Assembly (NCBI GenBank): GCA_041494645.1
Contig: JBGQBD010000001.1
Coordinates: forward strand, 5,361 to 69,360
Origin: Candidatus Limnocylindria bacterium
Lineage (GTDB): Bacteria; Chloroflexota; Limnocylindria; Limnocylindrales; CSP1-4
DNA length: 64,000 bases
Direction of reading: 5' to 3'
Shown here: piece after piece, positions 1,870-28,677 of the stretch
Numbering within the stretch: the first letter of the stretch is position 1
Layout: every line of letters starts with the position of its first letter
The notes under the pieces: model-generated
What the model was told of the DNA's origin: nothing
What the model saw: only the letters and a program-made list of their open reading frames with translations
Database searches by the model: none
Made by a program: the position numbers and the translations under genes

Positions 1870-3018
1870 TCAGCCGGGCAGCTGGCCCAGGGTCACACTG
1901 ATCGTGGTGGTCGTGCCGTCCTGATGCTGAACCTTCATCTTCACCACGTCGCCGGGATGGTGGGCGGCCAGGGTGCCGGCCAACGTCGAGCCGTCCGGGA
2001 TGGCCGTGCCGTCGACGTCCACGATGGTGTCGCCCGCCACGAGGCCGGCGGTCGCGGCCGGCGTGCCGGGCTTGACGGCGACTATCAGGGCGCCGCCGCC
2101 ATTGGCGTCGCTCATCGTGACTCCAAGGAAGGAGCGACCCGAGTTGGTCACCCTGCCACTGGCAATGAGCTGATCCGCAATCACCTTGGCGCGGTTGCTC
2201 GAGATCGCGAAGCCGATACCTGGCGCGCTACCGCCGAGCTGGGGGTCGGTCGCGGCCAGAGTCGGGATCCCCACGACCTCGCCCCGAAGATCCACGAGGG
2301 CGCCGCCGCTGTTGCCGGGGTTGATCGCCGCGCTGGTCTGGATCACGTCCGGGAGGGCGTTGCCGCTGGGCTCGCTGACCTGGCGCCCCAGGGCGCTGAC
2401 GATGCCCTCGGTGACGCTGGACTGGAGGCCGAGAGGATTGCCCACGGCCAGGACGAAGTCGCCGACCGACAGGGCGGACGAATCGCCGAAGGTGGCAGGG
2501 GTCAGGCCGGTGGCGTTGATCTTGATGACGGCGATGTCGTCGGGGACATAGCTGCCGACCAGCGTTCCCGGATACGCGTGCCCGTTGGAGAGCGTTACGG
2601 TGAACGTGGTCGAGCTGCCCACCACATGGGCATTCGTGACGATATCGCCCTTGGAGTCGTAGATGATGCCCGAGCCGAGGCCCTGGTCGGTCTCGATCTG
2701 GACGACTTCAGGCTTGACCAGCTTGATGACGCTGACCATCTGGTCCTGGAGCGCACCGGCTGCACCACTGACCGTCGTCACCGCCGCCGGCGCAGGCGTT
2801 GGCGTGGACGTGGCCGGCTGGAGGACCGCCGGGGCGTAGCCTCCTCCGGTCGGGCTCGCATTCGCAACAAGGGCCGCGACGGCTGAATTGGCCGTTTGCC
2901 CAAGGTCCGTGATCGTCCCTGTCGAGGTACCGCAGGCTGCCGCGACCACGCCGACGAAGACGAGAAGGAGAATCGAGGCGAGACGGGTCGCCTTAAGCCG
3001 CCGCACTTGGGATGCCAT
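1870..3018 (-). CDS. htrA: HtrA/DegP-family trypsin-like serine protease with C-terminal PDZ domain
   Basis: Has a GNSGGAL catalytic serine motif, a TNAHVV His region and a DIAVIK Asp region, an N-terminal TM/signal segment, and a C-terminal PDZ-like domain. The ORF extends to 3060; the start at MASQVRRLK (3018) is preferred. Confidence 0.8.
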   Translation of the reverse strand: MASQVRRLKATRLASILLLVFVGVVAAACGTSTGTITDLGQTANSAVAALVANASPTGGGYAPAVLQPATSTPTPAPAAVTTVSGAAGALQDQMVSVIKLVKPEVVQIETDQGLGSGIIYDSKGDIVTNAHVVGSSTTFTVTLSNGHAYPGTLVGSYVPDDIAVIKINATGLTPATFGDSSALSVGDFVLAVGNPLGLQSSVTEGIVSALGRQVSEPSGNALPDVIQTSAAINPGNSGGALVDLRGEVVGIPTLAATDPQLGGSAPGIGFAISSNRAKVIADQLIASGRVTNSGRSFLGVTMSDANGGGALIVAVKPGTPAATAGLVAGDTIVDVDGTAIPDGSTLAGTLAAHHPGDVVKMKVQHQDGTTTTISVTLGQLPG

Positions 3019-3153
3019 GTTGGACCTCCTGGATGACGCCCTACTAGGATCTGGCGTCATCGACTGAGGCCATGTTTCTACCGTAAGCTGAATTGAATCT
3101 GAAGCAGGCCCGTCCAGTTACCACTGTCACGGCCGCCGGCCCGGCCGCCGCCC

Positions 3154-3624
3154 CTAGGCCGTGGCCGACCCGTCCGCCGAAACGGCGCCTTCCCTCTCGC
3201 CGAAACAGACCGACTCGAACACGAAGAGCTGCGTCCCCTTCTCGCGCCAGGCGCTCCCGGAGAGTCCGGCCTTGCGACAGACCGCGTCGAGCATCTGCTC
3301 CCTGTCCCAACCCATCTCCGTGGCGACTTGCGGGAGCAGCAGGCCGCGGCGCATGCCTCTCTCCACGACGATGCCGTGCCGGCCTGGTTGGAAGCCGGAC
3401 GGGTCGCGCAGCTCGACCGGCGGCTCGAGCACGGATACCTCCACCTCAAGGGCCGGGACCTCCGATTCGGTGACCGGGAGGAAGCGCGGGTCGTCCAGGG
3501 CCGCGGCCACGGCGGCGTCGCGGACGTTGATCCAGAGCGGAACGTCATAGCGCATCAGGCCTATGCAGCCCCGCAGCTCGCCGTTCTCACGCAGCGTGAC
3601 GAAGGCCGCCGCGAGCTCGGCCAT
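3154..3624 (-). CDS. AMMECR1-domain protein (AmmeMemoRadiSam system protein A)
   Basis: Carries the LRGCIG signature of the AMMECR1 family and is divergent from the cognate radical SAM and MEMO genes. Conserved N-terminal residues (KRRLLDIARGAIEAAV) are encoded in frame upstream of the only ATG with no canonical start, so the true start is uncertain. Confidence 0.7.
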   Translation of the reverse strand: MAELAAAFVTLRENGELRGCIGLMRYDVPLWINVRDAAVAAALDDPRFLPVTESEVPALEVEVSVLEPPVELRDPSGFQPGRHGIVVERGMRRGLLLPQVATEMGWDREQMLDAVCRKAGLSGSAWREKGTQLFVFESVCFGEREGAVSADGSATA

Positions 3625-3965
3625 GGCAGGCGAGGGGGCGCCGGTGTCGGGCTCTGGACGCGGACCGCGGCAGACCGCGGCCTCGATGGCGCCGCGCGCG
3701 ATGTCGAGGAGCCGGCGCTTGTCGGATGGTTCGGGTTGTCTCGTGGTCGCCTCGCAGCTTGACGTGCAAGAGGCTACGCCCCTCGCGCCGTGACGCCAGG
3801 GTCAAATGGCGCGTTCTGGAAGCGGAGCGCCAACCGGTCGGTTGCGACCGGAGGGGTCGCGGCCAGAGCGAGCCGGGCCACCCCTTCCGAGCGGGCCGCT
3901 CGGGCCGTTCGGCCCTATTCCGGGTTCGTCTTCCGGACGAGCATCAGACACGAGGAATCCGCTCC

Positions 3966-5048
3966 GTGTCACCGCTCGCGCCATCTCAATCGCTCACAGG
4001 CGACTCGGCCAGGCTCGCCGTGCTGGCCGTGTCCGAGGCGCACGGAGCAGTCCGGTGCGTCGCCTGCGCCCATCGCTGCCTGGTCCGACCCGGTCGGGCC
4101 GGGATCTGCCGCGTCCGCGAGAATCGCGACGGGGCGCTGGTCACGCTCGTGTACGGACGTGCCGTAGCGGCCAATGCCGACCCGATCGAGAAGAAGCCTC
4201 TCTTCCACGTCTACCCCGGCAGCGTGGCCTACTCGATCGCCACCCGAGGCTGCAACTTCCACTGCCTTCACTGTCAGAATTGGGCCATCTCGCAGGCCGC
4301 CCGCGACGGGTTCGCCGCCCCGTCCTTCGCCCTCGCTCCGAGAGACGTCGTCCGGGCCGCTCTGGCGGCGGGATCGCGCAGCATCGCCTACACCTACACC
4401 GAGCCGACGATCTTCATCGAGTACGTCCTCGACACGGCCCGGCTGGCCGCCGAAGCCGGCCTGGCCAACCTCCTGGTGACGAACGGCTACCAGACTCCGG
4501 AGGCGCTCGACCTGCTCGGCCCTCTCGTCGCGGCCGCCAACGTCGATCTCAAGTCGTTCGACGACCGCTTCTATCGGAAGGTCTGCGGTGCCCGTCTCGC
4601 TCCGATCCTGGCCACGCTCATCGGCATGCGCGAACGCGGCATCTGGGTTGAGGTGACGACGCTCCTGATTCCGGGCCTGAACGATGATCCCGACGGGCTT
4701 GCCGCGCTGGCTCGCTGGATCGTCGCCGAGCTCGGGCCGGAGACGCCCTGGCACGTCAGCCGCTTCCACCCGACCTACCGGCTGACCGACCTGGACCCGA
4801 CTCCGACGGCGACGATGGAGCGGACGATCGAGATCGGCCGGACCGCCGGGCTGCGCCACGTCTACTCGGGCAACCTCGGCAACGGCGACGAGGACACGCG
4901 CTGCGCCGGTTGCGGCACGACTCTGATCCGGCGCCACGGGTTCCAGGCCATACGAACGGGGCTGACCGAGGGCAGATGCGCGCACTGCGGCCGGGCGCTG
5001 GCAGGGATCGGGCTGGCCGAGTTCAACGGCGCGGCGGCGACCCGATGA
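3966..5048 (+). CDS. AmmeMemoRadiSam system radical SAM enzyme (PFL-activating-enzyme-like)
   Basis: Has the CNFHCLHCQNW CxxxCxxC radical SAM motif, an N-terminal VRCVACAHRC cysteine cluster, and a DPIEKKPLFHVYPGS block typical of this subfamily. The start is GTG at 3966 (RBS gagga upstream) or 4020, within a longer ORF from 3726. Confidence 0.8.
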   Translation: MSPLAPSQSLTGDSARLAVLAVSEAHGAVRCVACAHRCLVRPGRAGICRVRENRDGALVTLVYGRAVAANADPIEKKPLFHVYPGSVAYSIATRGCNFHCLHCQNWAISQAARDGFAAPSFALAPRDVVRAALAAGSRSIAYTYTEPTIFIEYVLDTARLAAEAGLANLLVTNGYQTPEALDLLGPLVAAANVDLKSFDDRFYRKVCGARLAPILATLIGMRERGIWVEVTTLLIPGLNDDPDGLAALARWIVAELGPETPWHVSRFHPTYRLTDLDPTPTATMERTIEIGRTAGLRHVYSGNLGNGDEDTRCAGCGTTLIRRHGFQAIRTGLTEGRCAHCGRALAGIGLAEFNGAAATR

Positions 5049-5917
5049 GTCGCTCCTCCCGGTCCCCGGCCGTGGCCGGGACCTTCTATCCAGGGGAACC
5101 TTCCCGACTCCGGGATATGGTCCGGGAGTTGATCGCCGAGGCCGCGGAGAGGACACGGCCGGCGGACCTCGATCCTACGACCGTGCTCGGGCTGATGGTG
5201 CCGCATGCGGGCCTGGTCTACTCCGGCGTGATCGCCGCGCTCGGCTGGGTGCTGGCAGGCGAGATCGCGCCGGCAACGATCGTCCTGGCCGGCACGGATC
5301 ACCAGGCCTGGGCTCGAGGGGTCGGCGTCTGGACCGGCGGCCCGTGGCGAACCCCACTCGGCGAAGTGCCGATAGACGAGGAGCTGGTCGCCAGGATCGT
5401 GGCCCTGGGTCCTCCCTTCGCGGCCGACGACGACGCCCATCTCGCGGAGCATTCGCTGGAGGTCCAGCTGCCCCTCATCTCCGCCACGTGCCCGGCGGCC
5501 CGGATCGCCCCTCTGGCAGTCAGCCCGCGACTCGGGACTCATGCCCAGGCCGGCGCCATGCTCGGCCGGCTGCTGGCGGAGCGGCGCGCGGCCGGAGAGC
5601 GAATCCTCCTCGTCGCCAGCTCGGATATGGCTCACTACCCACCGGCATCGGTCTGCGAGAAGGCGGACGCCGAGCTGCTCGAGCCCCTGCTGCGACTGGA
5701 CGCGGACGCCCTCAACGCCCTGGACGCGAAGATCCAGCGCGACCACCTGCCCGGGCTGGTGTGCGGGCTGTGCGGCATCGACCCGGTCCGGGTCACACTG
5801 GCGGCCCTCGTGGAGCTGGGCGCCGGGCGCGGCATCCTCCTGGGCGCGGCAACCTCCGCGGACGCGGGCGGCGATCCCGGCCGGACGGTGGGCTACGCCG
5901 CCGCGGCGTTCGTCTGA
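5045..5917 (+). CDS. MEMO1-family protein (AmmeMemoRadiSam system protein B)
   Basis: Has AGTFYPG, PHAGLVYSG, EHSLEVQLP and DMAHY-like motifs of the MEMO1/extradiol-dioxygenase-like family. Its ATG overlaps the radical SAM stop (ATGA). Confidence 0.8.
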   Translation: MSRSSRSPAVAGTFYPGEPSRLRDMVRELIAEAAERTRPADLDPTTVLGLMVPHAGLVYSGVIAALGWVLAGEIAPATIVLAGTDHQAWARGVGVWTGGPWRTPLGEVPIDEELVARIVALGPPFAADDDAHLAEHSLEVQLPLISATCPAARIAPLAVSPRLGTHAQAGAMLGRLLAERRAAGERILLVASSDMAHYPPASVCEKADAELLEPLLRLDADALNALDAKIQRDHLPGLVCGLCGIDPVRVTLAALVELGAGRGILLGAATSADAGGDPGRTVGYAAAAFV

Positions 5918-5949
5918 CCTCCCGGAGCGGCGGCGGTAGGCTACGCACA

Positions 5950-6585
5950 ATGAGCGACGACTCGCAGCATTGGGCCGACTACTACGCCGTCACCGTCGAG
6001 CGACCGGCCTGGCAGACGGTCTGCAAGGCGATCGACCTCTTCCGCGCCGAGGACGATGCGGCCGGCAGGAGCGGTGCGAGCGGGTCGGGCGAGCGCTTCG
6101 CCGTGGATCTCGGGTGCGGTGCCGGACGGGACGCGCGCCAGCTGCTGCGGGCCGGGTGGCGGGTGCTGGCGGTCGATCGGGAGCCGGCCGCGCGGGTTGC
6201 GATCGAGAGGGCCACAGAACCCGAATCGAAGCTGCGGCTTGAGATCGTCATCGCCGACCTCGCCGACGTGGAGATCCCTTCATGCGACCTCGTCAACGCC
6301 AGCCTCAGCCTGCCCTTCCTGGCGCCTGATGCGTTTCACAGTGCGTGGCAGCGGATCATGGCGGCGCTAGCGCCTGGCTCCCGCTTCTCGGCCATGCTCT
6401 TCGGCGACCATGACGGATCGGCTTCCGAGCCGGACATGACCTGCCTGGCGCCCGAGCGGATCCGGGCCGATCTGTCGGACTTCGAGATCGAGCACTGGTC
6501 GGTCAAGGAAGAGGATTCCCAGACAGCCCTCGGCGACCCGCATTATCTCCACCTGATCGAGGTCGTCGCCAGACGAGTTCGCTGA
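5950..6585 (+). CDS. Class I SAM-dependent methyltransferase
   Basis: Has the VDLGCGAGRD motif I of Rossmann-fold methyltransferases. It lies 32 bp downstream of the MEMO gene on the same strand. Confidence 0.7.
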   Translation: MSDDSQHWADYYAVTVERPAWQTVCKAIDLFRAEDDAAGRSGASGSGERFAVDLGCGAGRDARQLLRAGWRVLAVDREPAARVAIERATEPESKLRLEIVIADLADVEIPSCDLVNASLSLPFLAPDAFHSAWQRIMAALAPGSRFSAMLFGDHDGSASEPDMTCLAPERIRADLSDFEIEHWSVKEEDSQTALGDPHYLHLIEVVARRVR

Positions 6586-6818
6586 GCGTGGACGGGCGGC
6601 TGGCTGCCCGCGTCAAACAGCGCCGAACTCGGCGCCCGTCCCGACCCTCGATGCGCCGGGCGCCACACGCGCGCGGCCGTTCGACGGATTCCGGCGTCTG
6701 CCTTAGCCTATGGGACCGCCCGCACAACATCTGCGGCTGGACTTTACCTGTCCTTCACAGACCGATCTCATTCTGGTGACCGGTCGGACGAATACGAATG
6801 AACCCGCAAGGAGAGCCA

Positions 6819-8477
6819 ATGAGATCGGCAAACGCCGAAGATGCGCCGGTTCATCCGGCCGTTGAGGTCAACGCCAGGGCCCGGTTCGAGATCCTGGGCG
6901 CCATCCTGCTCGCCCTCTTCCTCGGCGCGCTCGACCAGACGATCGTGGGACCGGTTCTGCCGACGATCGCCAAAGAGCTCAATGGGATCGACCTCTACAC
7001 CTGGGTCGTGACCGCATACCTGGTCACCAGCACCGCGGCCATCCCCGTGTACGGCAAGCTGTCCGACCTGTATGGGCGCAAGCCGATGCTGATGGTGGGG
7101 ATCTGCGTCTTCCTGGCCGGCTCCGTCCTGTCCGGGCTCAGCCAGACGATGTGGCAGCTGATCCTCTTCCGCGGCGTGCAGGGCCTGGGCGCCGGGGCGC
7201 TCTTCCCGATCTCCCTGGCGGTCATCGGCGACCTCTTCACCCCGGCCGAGCGCGGCAAGTACCAGGGCCTGTTCGGTGCCGTCTTCGGCGTCGCCTTCCT
7301 GGTCGGCCCGTTCATCGGCGGCGTCCTGACAGAGCACCTGTCGTGGCATTGGATCTTCTTCGTCAACCTTCCGATCGGGCTCGTTTCCCTCTACCTGATC
7401 GGCCGTCTTCTTCCGACCGTGCGCACGGCCGGTGCTCGCTTCACCCTCGACGTCCCGGGCGTCGTCCTTCTGACCTTCGCGATCGTGCCGACCCTCATCG
7501 CCCTGACGCTGGCGGAAACCAGCAGCTGGGCCGACCGGACGGTCCTTGTGTGGTTCGCGGTAGGCCTGGTCTCGCTGGCCGCCTTCCTGTTCGCCGAGAC
7601 ACGGGTCGAGGATCCGGTCATCCCGCTCGACCTGTTCAAGAACCGCACGTTCGCGGTCTCGGCCGTGGCGACCCTGTTCGCCATCTTCGGCTTCTCTACT
7701 CTGATCATCTTCCTGCCGCTGTGGTTCCAGGTCGTCAAGGGTGACAGCCCCACGGCCTCCGGCTATGCCCTGTTCCCGTTCCTCGCCGGGCTCATCTTCA
7801 GCTCGATCCTGGCCGGCCAGATCGTCAGTCGAACCGGCCGCTACAAGGTCCTGATCGCAGTCGCCATGGCGGCCCTGACCCTCGGACTGGCGCTCTTCAC
7901 GAACCTCCGCGACGACACTCCCTCGCCCGTCCTGTGGGCCTGGATGCTAATCGCCGGTCTCGGGGTTGGGCCCACGATGGCAATCTTCACGCTCATTGTC
8001 CAGAACGACGTTCCGTTCAAGCGTCTCGGCACGGCCACGAGCGACCTGACGCTCATCCGCCAGATCGGCACGTCGCTCGGCCTGACGGTCGCCTTCACGT
8101 TCTTCCGCAACAACCTGAGCTGGGGGCTGATCCACGACTCGGTGGTGAGAGCCGGAGCGCCCGCACAGGCCGTCCCCGCGACGGCGCCCAAGGGCTTTGA
8201 CGTAGGCAGCCTGACGGCGGTCGGCAGCACCCCTGCGAACGCGCTGGCCAACGTGCCGGCGCAGATGGTCGGTTACTACGTCTCGGGCTTCCATGAAGCC
8301 TTCTCCATTGCTCTCGCGAACTCGATGTGGGTCGGCGTGGGCGCGGCCGCTCTGGCGTTCGTGACGGTGCTGGCTCTGAAGGAGAAGCCTCTGCGAGCCC
8401 ACTTCCACGCCGAGCAGGCCGCCAGGGCGGGACTTGCGCACGCGCCGGCCGGGACAGCCTCAGAGGCGGCACAGTAG
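6819..8477 (+). CDS. MFS transporter, DHA2 (EmrB/QacA, 14-TMS) drug:H+ antiporter family
   Basis: About 550 aa with 14 hydrophobic segments and N-terminal LGALDQTIVGPVLPTIAKELNG typical of DHA2. The second ATG at 6819 (MRSANAED) is preferred because it has an aaggagag RBS. Confidence 0.8.
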   Translation: MRSANAEDAPVHPAVEVNARARFEILGAILLALFLGALDQTIVGPVLPTIAKELNGIDLYTWVVTAYLVTSTAAIPVYGKLSDLYGRKPMLMVGICVFLAGSVLSGLSQTMWQLILFRGVQGLGAGALFPISLAVIGDLFTPAERGKYQGLFGAVFGVAFLVGPFIGGVLTEHLSWHWIFFVNLPIGLVSLYLIGRLLPTVRTAGARFTLDVPGVVLLTFAIVPTLIALTLAETSSWADRTVLVWFAVGLVSLAAFLFAETRVEDPVIPLDLFKNRTFAVSAVATLFAIFGFSTLIIFLPLWFQVVKGDSPTASGYALFPFLAGLIFSSILAGQIVSRTGRYKVLIAVAMAALTLGLALFTNLRDDTPSPVLWAWMLIAGLGVGPTMAIFTLIVQNDVPFKRLGTATSDLTLIRQIGTSLGLTVAFTFFRNNLSWGLIHDSVVRAGAPAQAVPATAPKGFDVGSLTAVGSTPANALANVPAQMVGYYVSGFHEAFSIALANSMWVGVGAAALAFVTVLALKEKPLRAHFHAEQAARAGLAHAPAGTASEAAQ

Positions 8478-28214: not shown

Positions 28215-28465
28215 CGGCGGCCTGGCCCGCCTGCCGGAGGGGACCTCACCGCCGGAGGCCTCCCATCCGATCCGCGCAGGTGGGTGACTTGCGCCGTTCG
28301 GTCAGGTCTCCTGGCTTGCGGATCGTCGCTGGCTGGTCGCCTTCCCGGGCCCTTGGCCCCGTGGCATCTGACCAGCCGCTCCTCGCTCACAGTTGCGCGA
28401 CAGCGCCGGGTTCTCACCGGCTTCCCTGATACGAGCGGCCCTATTCGCAATGGCATGCGGAGGGT
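28215..28465 (-). promoter_or_regulatory. Cobalamin (AdoCbl) riboswitch with RBS-sequestering expression platform
   Basis: The minus-strand sequence CAGGGAAGCCGGTGAGAACCCGGCGCTGTCGCGCAACTGTGA ... AAGCCAGGAGACCTGAC matches the conserved cobalamin riboswitch core and B12 box (rAGYCMGgAgaCCkGCc). Downstream, CCTCCGGCGG...CCGCCGGAGG can pair across the GGAGGA RBS of the 28206 start. Confidence 0.8.
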
Positions 28466-28677
28466 ACATCGCGGGGGGTCCCGGCGCCAGGCTGACTCGG
28501 AAGATCACTGCGTGTAGCCTCATGTCGACCGGCTTCTCCGGCCCGCCTCGCGCTCTCGGGTGACGCTCTCGTGCGCCGGACTCACGTTCTCGCCGGTAGG
28601 CCGGGTGAGCCGGGCCTCTGCGTGCAGTGCCACCGGCCGCGCTATCGTGCTGCCGAATTAACCCAAGGAGGAATCCG

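Follow-up and report, generated by a model that had tools for sequence, protein, structure and literature searches.

The AmmeMemoRadiSam system, a triad of genes encoding an AMMECR1 protein (amrA), a radical S-adenosylmethionine (SAM) enzyme (amrS), and a Memo-like protein (amrB), is present on a soil Chloroflexota contig from Candidatus Limnocylindria (JBGQBD010000001.1, positions 5,361 to 69,360; hereafter the window, 64,000 nt with a G+C content of ~70%), where amrB is followed by a gene for a class I SAM-dependent methyltransferase (MT). We put a probability of about 0.55 on the reading that this is an ordinary AmmeMemoRadiSam locus organized around a tight amrS-amrB unit, behind which a TehB-like MT was inserted once within a Limnocylindria sub-clade and then inherited with its surroundings, the enzyme being probably cotranscribed with amrS-amrB and functionally independent of them. 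The MT is unlikely to serve the AmmeMemoRadiSam pathway as a dedicated step. A different class I methyltransferase adjoining amrS in Desulfobacterota and an unusual start codon in amrA are weighed below.

Composition of the locus

The four genes in question are the following.

3154..3744, minus strand: amrA (AMMECR1, AmmeMemoRadiSam protein A), placed by TIGR04335, Pfam AMMECR1, alignment with 196-aa relatives, and start-codon comparison
3966..5048, plus strand: amrS, radical SAM enzyme of 360 aa, placed by TIGR04337, Cys columns, and start alignment
5045..5917, plus strand: amrB, Memo-like protein of 290 aa, placed by TIGR04336 and Pfam Memo
5950..6585, plus strand: class I SAM-dependent MT of 211 aa, predicted to be TehB-like from Pfam Methyltransf_25/11/12, AlphaFold2, and Foldseek

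All three members of the triad lie on the one contig within positions 3154-5917 and exceed the curated cutoffs of their NCBIfam models (TIGR04335 for A, TIGR04336 for B, TIGR04337 for the radical SAM enzyme) with intact catalytic motifs; this is a genuine, ordinary AmmeMemoRadiSam locus. The open reading frame (ORF) at 3154..3624 on the minus strand, corresponding to a 156-aa form of AmrA, scores 155.7 bits against TIGR04335 (cutoff, 99; profile positions 33-173) and matches Pfam AMMECR1 at 2.3e-49. Its translation contains ELRGCIG and DDPRF, in line with the RGChG and DxR[aromatic] motifs that define AMMECR1 in the part of the published description consulted (PMC2034487). AmrS reaches 332.5 bits (cutoff, 220) and carries the CX3CX2C cluster CNFHCLHCQNW, an N-terminal C-x2-C-x3-C-x9-C cluster, and a C-terminal CxxC...CxxC arrangement. 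Across 52 AmrS representatives, C31/C34/C38/C48, C96/C100/C103, and C313/C316/C338 are invariant and C341 is conserved in at least 90%, and the window protein has all of them. Its GTG start at 3966, preceded by GAGGA 11 nt upstream, aligns with the starts of relatives and equals the public JGI gene call on the matching metagenome contig Ga0534157_0000084. AmrB covers the full TIGR04336 profile (1-270 of 270) at 212.8 bits against a cutoff of 26, matches Pfam Memo at 4.9e-49, and keeps the Memo-type motifs PHAG, DH, SSDMAHY, and CG..P. With E-values between 1e-46 and 1e-99, the triad matches are far beyond chance.

The inventory in the original prediction was therefore sound as far as it named an AMMECR1 protein with LRGCIG, a radical SAM enzyme with CNFHCLHCQNW and an N-terminal Cys cluster, a MEMO1-like protein, an ATGA overlap of the last two genes (at 5045-5048, where the amrB ATG overlaps the amrS TGA), and a class I methyltransferase 32 bp after the MEMO gene (amrB stop at 5917; MT ATG at 5950). 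It resembles the known system in that its A, B, and S proteins pass the curated cutoffs and show the family motifs, and departs from it in having a divergent A gene with an ACG start and an MT behind B, the latter in this clade only. The closest relatives of the window carry the annotation Candidatus Limnocylindrales/Limnocylindria (Chloroflexota).

Linkage of the methyltransferase within Limnocylindria

A metagenome scan with an MT alignment yielded 80 MT-family loci, 70 of them with at least 300 nt of upstream sequence. MT homologues at 84%, 69%, 67%, and 61% identity all occur in the neighborhood amrS-amrB-MT-MFS, and amrB lies directly upstream of the MT gene in 35 of the 70 loci, with linkage extending down to ~57 to 61% MT identity. 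Loci that are long enough share the order [HtrA, amrA] amrS-amrB-MT-MFS-(nitroreductase)-phosphoesterase-phosphoglucomutase, a syntenic block of ~10 kb. On a neighbor-joining tree of the MTs, the linked copies form one clade with a single nested unlinked exception, and the unlinked copies make up the other half. The conserved linkage on which the original prediction depended is thus borne out as contiguity with operon-like gaps, but essentially within one clade inside one block; because it has a single origin inside fully syntenic DNA, its conservation does not count as independent evidence.

The unlinked loci have none of the linked-block genes nearby, and no orthologue of the downstream MFS gene was detected in them. 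The neighbors of unlinked MTs at L124, L128, L129, L136, L143, L148, and L172 are ECF sigma/anti-sigma fusions, YgaP-like transmembrane proteins, ArsR, CDF transporters, and a metallophosphatase/DUF1622 pair, an assortment that suggests a context of metal or stress flavor; SRPBCC genes also occur beside unlinked MTs. Neofunctionalization of the linked MT was considered and rejected: linked and unlinked MTs have 73 columns in common that are conserved at 90% or more, and not one column separates the two clades by a fixed difference, so that the linked copies appear to bear no sign of changed function.

AmrS loci across phyla

The 52 aligned AmrS representatives led to 80 AmrS loci from GTDB species genomes (L012-L091), a similarity-ranked sample drawn mostly from Desulfobacterota, Nitrospirota, or Chloroflexota. 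Neither single-sequence nor profile searches found the window-type MT in any of the 80 loci, and in two of them with the same amrA/amrS-amrB layout, from Limnocylindria (L012) and Chloroflexia (L013), no methyltransferase follows amrB. The gene-neighborhood comparison that the original prediction had proposed as its check thus came out against it, as the window-type MT was not found linked in independent lineages.

The sample also qualifies the triad as a genomic unit. Only 4 of the 80 loci have amrA or amrB within 8 kb of amrS, and the compact triad is a minority arrangement in this similarity-ranked sample. Among the downstream neighbors of AmrS are genes for pseudouridine synthase (3 loci), archease (3), UbiA (2), and ICMT/PEMT (2), which resemble the RNA-base and isoprenoid contexts that Burroughs and colleagues reportedly described in 2019.

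As side observations on AmrS itself, many representatives are 450 to 1150 aa long with the AmrS domain at one end (P0130, P0131, P0134, P0137, P0142, P0146, P0148-P0150, and others), which points to fusions to other domains, and tandem AmrS paralogues occur at L082 (7995-10399) in a metagenome-assembled genome of Candidatus Omnitrophota.

Gene spacing and intergenic signals

Outside the four genes, the remaining features of the locus are these.

3745..3965: divergent intergenic region between amrA and amrS, examined in a 9-locus alignment
5918..5949: spacer of 32 bp between amrB and the MT gene
6586..6818: spacer of 233 bp between the MT and MFS genes, with promoter-like conserved blocks
6819..8477, plus strand: MFS transporter gene (Pfam MFS_1, 8.3e-57), context outside the system

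Spacing is tightest between amrS and amrB, with a median of -4 and the -4 overlap in 13 of 23 related loci. The amrB/MT gap has a median of 40 bp (range, 9 to 135 in 36 related loci), and no terminator-like hairpin was found in the 32-bp spacer of the window. The MT/MFS gap has a median of 274 bp (range, 192 to 338 in 32 loci) and contains conserved blocks, i.e., TAGCCT at 6704-6709 in the window and its sub-clade and GTATAnATAC-type palindromes and TTCACGAGTCCT in relatives (equivalent spacers in L098, L103, L105, L125, L134, and L145). These blocks suggest that the MFS gene has a promoter or operator of its own, and the spacer likely marks the end of an amrS-amrB-MT unit. Judged by spacing, the MT is probably cotranscribed with amrS-amrB. 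A conserved small ORF or precursor peptide in the MT/MFS spacer was also considered and is unlikely; small ORFs are present, but outside the promoter-like blocks the sequence shows little conservation. A scan for promoters and terminators over 2800-7000 on both strands returned none, a result that is uninformative at 70% GC.

The region between the divergent amrA and amrS genes holds two conserved elements in the 9-locus alignment, an inverted repeat CGCCAG(A/G)GTCnAATGGCG (window ~3804-3825) and a palindrome, GGGCCGTTCGGCCC (~3901-3914). A structured RNA was rejected for this spacer, since RNAalifold on the 9 loci gave no covariation (term, +0.42), and for that reason the blocks are more likely candidate DNA operators or promoter elements than structured RNA. 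The only Rfam match in the whole window lies far from the locus: a cobalamin riboswitch (RF00174, 89.8 bits) at 28284-28468 on the minus strand, upstream of two ORFs without a Pfam match and a CbiQ-like transporter component.

Affiliation of the methyltransferase

By Pfam, the MT matches generic class I domains only (Methyltransf_25/11/12, with Methyltransf_25 at 42.6 bits against 27), and its motif I, VDLGCGAGRD, which fits the class I pattern hh[D/E]hGxGxG, is invariant in 40 homologues. An AlphaFold2 model (predicted local distance difference test score of 87) shows the seven-strand class I fold. Foldseek placed TehB first among 350,542 PDB chains (2xva/2xvm/4dq0/2i6g; E = 1e-12, TM score 0.71-0.75, ~19% identity), and TehB also came top in a profile search of PDB sequences. 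Pfam TehB is passed narrowly (21.6 versus 20.4 bits) over only positions 34-114 of 193, and the MT stays below the TehB equivalog cutoffs (NF008405, 29.3 versus 218 bits; TIGR00477, 23.5 versus 219.5). The predicted fold and the sequence profile thus make the MT TehB-like. It shares with TehB of Escherichia coli (2xva/2xvm) and Salmonella (2i6g) a size of ~200 aa and the class I SAM-binding core, and differs in the ~19% identity, the equivalog scores far below cutoff, and the missing tehA partner. A daptide-type RiPP (ribosomally synthesized and posttranslationally modified peptide) methyltransferase was rejected (NF041820, 34.4 bits against a cutoff of 175), and the score against the NCBIfam CpaM model was far below cutoff.

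This affiliation invites the idea that the MT and the downstream MFS protein form a TehB/TehA-like detoxification pair that methylates and then exports its substrate, unrelated to the Amr genes. In its favor, structure and sequence both match TehB best, the gene after the MT encodes an MFS protein wherever a linked locus extends far enough, and unlinked orthologues lie near ArsR, CDF, and other stress-type genes, one of them adjoining an MFS fragment. We nonetheless regard such a pair as improbable: the gap before the MFS gene is long and bears promoter-like blocks, in contrast to the short amrB/MT gap, and a search beside the unlinked MTs detected no orthologue of this MFS; the low equivalog scores speak against it as well. 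Under the single-insertion reading, the chemistry of the MT would most likely be its own, a small-molecule or anion methylation by analogy with TehB-type enzymes.

Evidence for a possible methyltransferase step in the pathway

Several observations weigh against a functionally independent MT. Of the 36 loci that make up the linked clade, 35 keep amrS, amrB, and MT side by side, and the conserved spacing is operon-like, 40 bp between amrB and MT against 274 bp plus promoter-like blocks between MT and MFS. Adjacency of amrA is less stable than that of the MT among linked loci: some relatives have an adjacent amrA, some have it 1.2 to 2.9 kb off, and some lack it over a distance of at least 4 kb. 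Last, 16 methyltransferases found directly upstream of AmrS in the cross-phylum sample constitute a single BLAST family, all from Desulfobacterota (L016, L023, L026, L028, L030, L033, L037, L042, L048, L049, L056, L063, L065, L067, L071, L087), and recurrent methyltransferase recruitment beside AmrS may mean that methylation is part of the pathway.

Read together, such points make room for the MT as a fourth component recruited in this Limnocylindria clade, which would methylate what AmrS/AmrB consume or produce, be it a small molecule, a nucleobase, or a peptide, and be translated from the same amrS-amrB-MT transcript. The short same-strand gaps (-4 and ~40 bp) followed by a long one with promoter-like blocks, the contiguity maintained to ~57 to 61% MT identity, the parallel pairing of AmrS with another class I family in Desulfobacterota, and the ICMT/PEMT-type methyltransferases downstream of AmrS in 2 further loci would all fit. 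Against it stand the single origin of the linkage inside a fully syntenic block, the occurrence of sister-clade MTs with the same conserved residues in unrelated contexts, the absence of the window-type MT from the other Chloroflexota amr loci (L012, L013) and all 80 sampled AmrS loci, and the inorganic or small toxic substrates methylated by the enzymes nearest to it in structure. On balance, we hold a fourth component to be possible but rather unlikely.

The Desulfobacterota pairing deserves description in its own right. A class I methyltransferase is the immediate upstream neighbor of AmrS in 17 to 18 of 77 loci, and any other Pfam family occupies that position in at most 2. The proteins are UbiE/MetW/DVU_1556-like, ~250 to 300 aa long, and below every curated cutoff. 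One of the loci, L063, belongs to a Desulfosalsimonas metagenome-assembled genome, and the phylum has cultured hosts. Reciprocal lookups with homologues at 58% and 40% identity returned the order ilvD-MT-radical SAM, with a 16-nt gap or a 23-nt overlap (L173, 4001-5837; L174, 4001-5810), and the radical SAM protein in these loci is an AmrS orthologue, 50 to 54% identical over its full length. A homologue at 39% identity and a shorter one from Dehalococcoidia were not linked to AmrS. Like the window MT, the Desulfobacterota enzyme is a class I SAM methyltransferase; its gene is on the same strand as, and abuts or overlaps, that of an AmrS orthologue 47 to 57% identical to the one in the window. 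It differs in belonging to another subfamily, of which only the SAM motif aligns with the window MT (BLASTP E-values of 1e-4 to 0.05), in lying upstream of amrS rather than downstream of amrB, and in loci that have no amrA or amrB nearby and often ilvD upstream. Since all 16 form one family in one phylum, they may represent few independent events. No publication on the pairing was found, and a literature search for DVU_1556 gave no matches; we regard the pairing as a modest new lead.

Taken at its strongest, this evidence would make methylation a recurrent AmrS-coupled step, with two unrelated class I families having independently become operon partners, one TehB-like after amrB in a Limnocylindria clade and the other UbiE/DVU_1556-like and abutting amrS in Desulfobacterota; the ICMT/PEMT-type enzymes beside AmrS in a few more loci are membrane methyltransferases. 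We consider this generalization unlikely. Were it true, the likely substrate would be a small molecule or base undergoing radical modification first and methylation afterward, and the compact S-B-MT and MT-S operons would be handy constructs for de-orphaning the system. The suggestion that a methyltransferase may lead to the substrate gains some independent support in one respect, the separate class I family upstream of AmrS in Desulfobacterota, and loses ground in another, the linkage of the window MT being lineage-specific.

Start codon and integrity of amrA

AmrA of relatives has 196 aa and starts 120 nt further upstream than the ATG at 3624 in the window. The window frame is open to 3744, i.e., for 196 codons, and encodes the conserved N-terminal helix KRRLLDIARGAIEAAV, but where the relatives start, the window has ACG (3744..3742) in place of a canonical start codon, with GAGG 5 nt upstream and no in-frame ATG, GTG, or TTG further upstream in the window. 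The first canonical start is the ATG at 3624, which gives a protein of 156 aa, 40 residues shorter, and has no Shine-Dalgarno sequence before it. At 10 alignable loci, the homologous start codon is GTG in 3, ATG in 4, TTG in 1, and ACG in 2 (the window and L117), and the GAGG Shine-Dalgarno is kept in all Limnocylindria loci shown in this comparison. L117 is a divergent locus with the ACG around position 894, an open frame, and a possible GTG 33 codons upstream; between it and the window, the N-terminal extension has a ratio of nonsynonymous to synonymous substitution rates (dN/dS) of 0.42, a value that decides little with dS saturated.

Two elements of the original prediction need revision here. 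The A gene, described as complete, has ACG in place of a canonical start at the homologous position, and of the shared 340-bp control region (3625-3965), a stretch of 120 nt codes for AmrA in relatives; because the homologous amrA frame reaches 3744, the noncoding spacer measures 221 bp (3745-3965).

One explanation is that amrA is being lost in this sub-lineage, the change from ATG to ACG having silenced or truncated it and left amrS-amrB, whether or not the MT takes part, to function with no A protein encoded nearby. Besides the ACG, the lack of an upstream in-frame canonical start, and the missing Shine-Dalgarno before 3624, it is favored by the closest relative (L001/L092, with an MT 84% identical), which has no amrA near amrS (none within 4 to 5 kb upstream), and by the missing adjacent amrA in several other linked loci. 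The 196-codon frame is nevertheless intact, with all conserved motifs and 65 to 68% identity to relatives, and the ACG is preceded, at suitable spacing, by the conserved Shine-Dalgarno. The ACG with an open frame recurs in L117, which makes weak noncanonical initiation possible, even if that locus has the possible upstream GTG, and on a metagenome contig the change may be a single-base assembly or population variant. Loss of amrA is thus a tentative and somewhat doubtful proposal. From its sequence, the gene may have weak initiation at ACG, yield a truncated product of 156 aa, be in decay, or contain a variant base.

Implications for the AmmeMemoRadiSam system

Conservation of AMMECR1 and MEMO1 extends from archaea to humans, and both are linked to disease. 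We know of no reaction for AMMECR1, MEMO1, or the prokaryotic three-gene system. The triad is an already defined and automatically annotated system, known for the family as an orphan in function, and the titles and abstracts searched reported no function for AmmeMemoRadiSam or for AMMECR1 with the radical SAM enzyme. In the part of their account consulted, Balaji & Aravind 2007 (PMC2034487) associate AMMECR1 with a ring-opening dioxygenase-like protein as well as a radical SAM enzyme, predict that they carry out an uncharacterized modification of RNA bases in which AMMECR1 may bear an organic radical on its conserved Cys, and mention no class I methyltransferase partner. Following the literature, AmrS would make a 5'-deoxyadenosyl radical, and AmrB, as a Memo-type metal enzyme, and AmrA, with its Cys, would then act on the same substrate, proposed to be an RNA base or isoprenoid.

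Against this background, the single-insertion reading would see the translationally coupled amrS-amrB pair as the conserved functional core of the locus and amrA as a loosely attached divergent partner. The MT would have arrived behind amrB a single time, in the ancestor of a Limnocylindria sub-clade, and been passed on since then together with the 10-kb block around it.

If a tailoring enzyme were reliably linked to the AmmeMemoRadiSam system, it would narrow down what kind of substrate the system acts on. Because it is linked in only one sub-lineage and found elsewhere in unrelated contexts, the window MT is a clade-specific variant and a weak clue to the chemistry of the system, and it should not be taken as a component of the system without experiments. 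In this lineage it is the amrS-amrB pair, rather than the triad, that is the tightly coupled unit, and the Desulfobacterota MT-AmrS pair allows the methylation idea to be tested a second time, independently.

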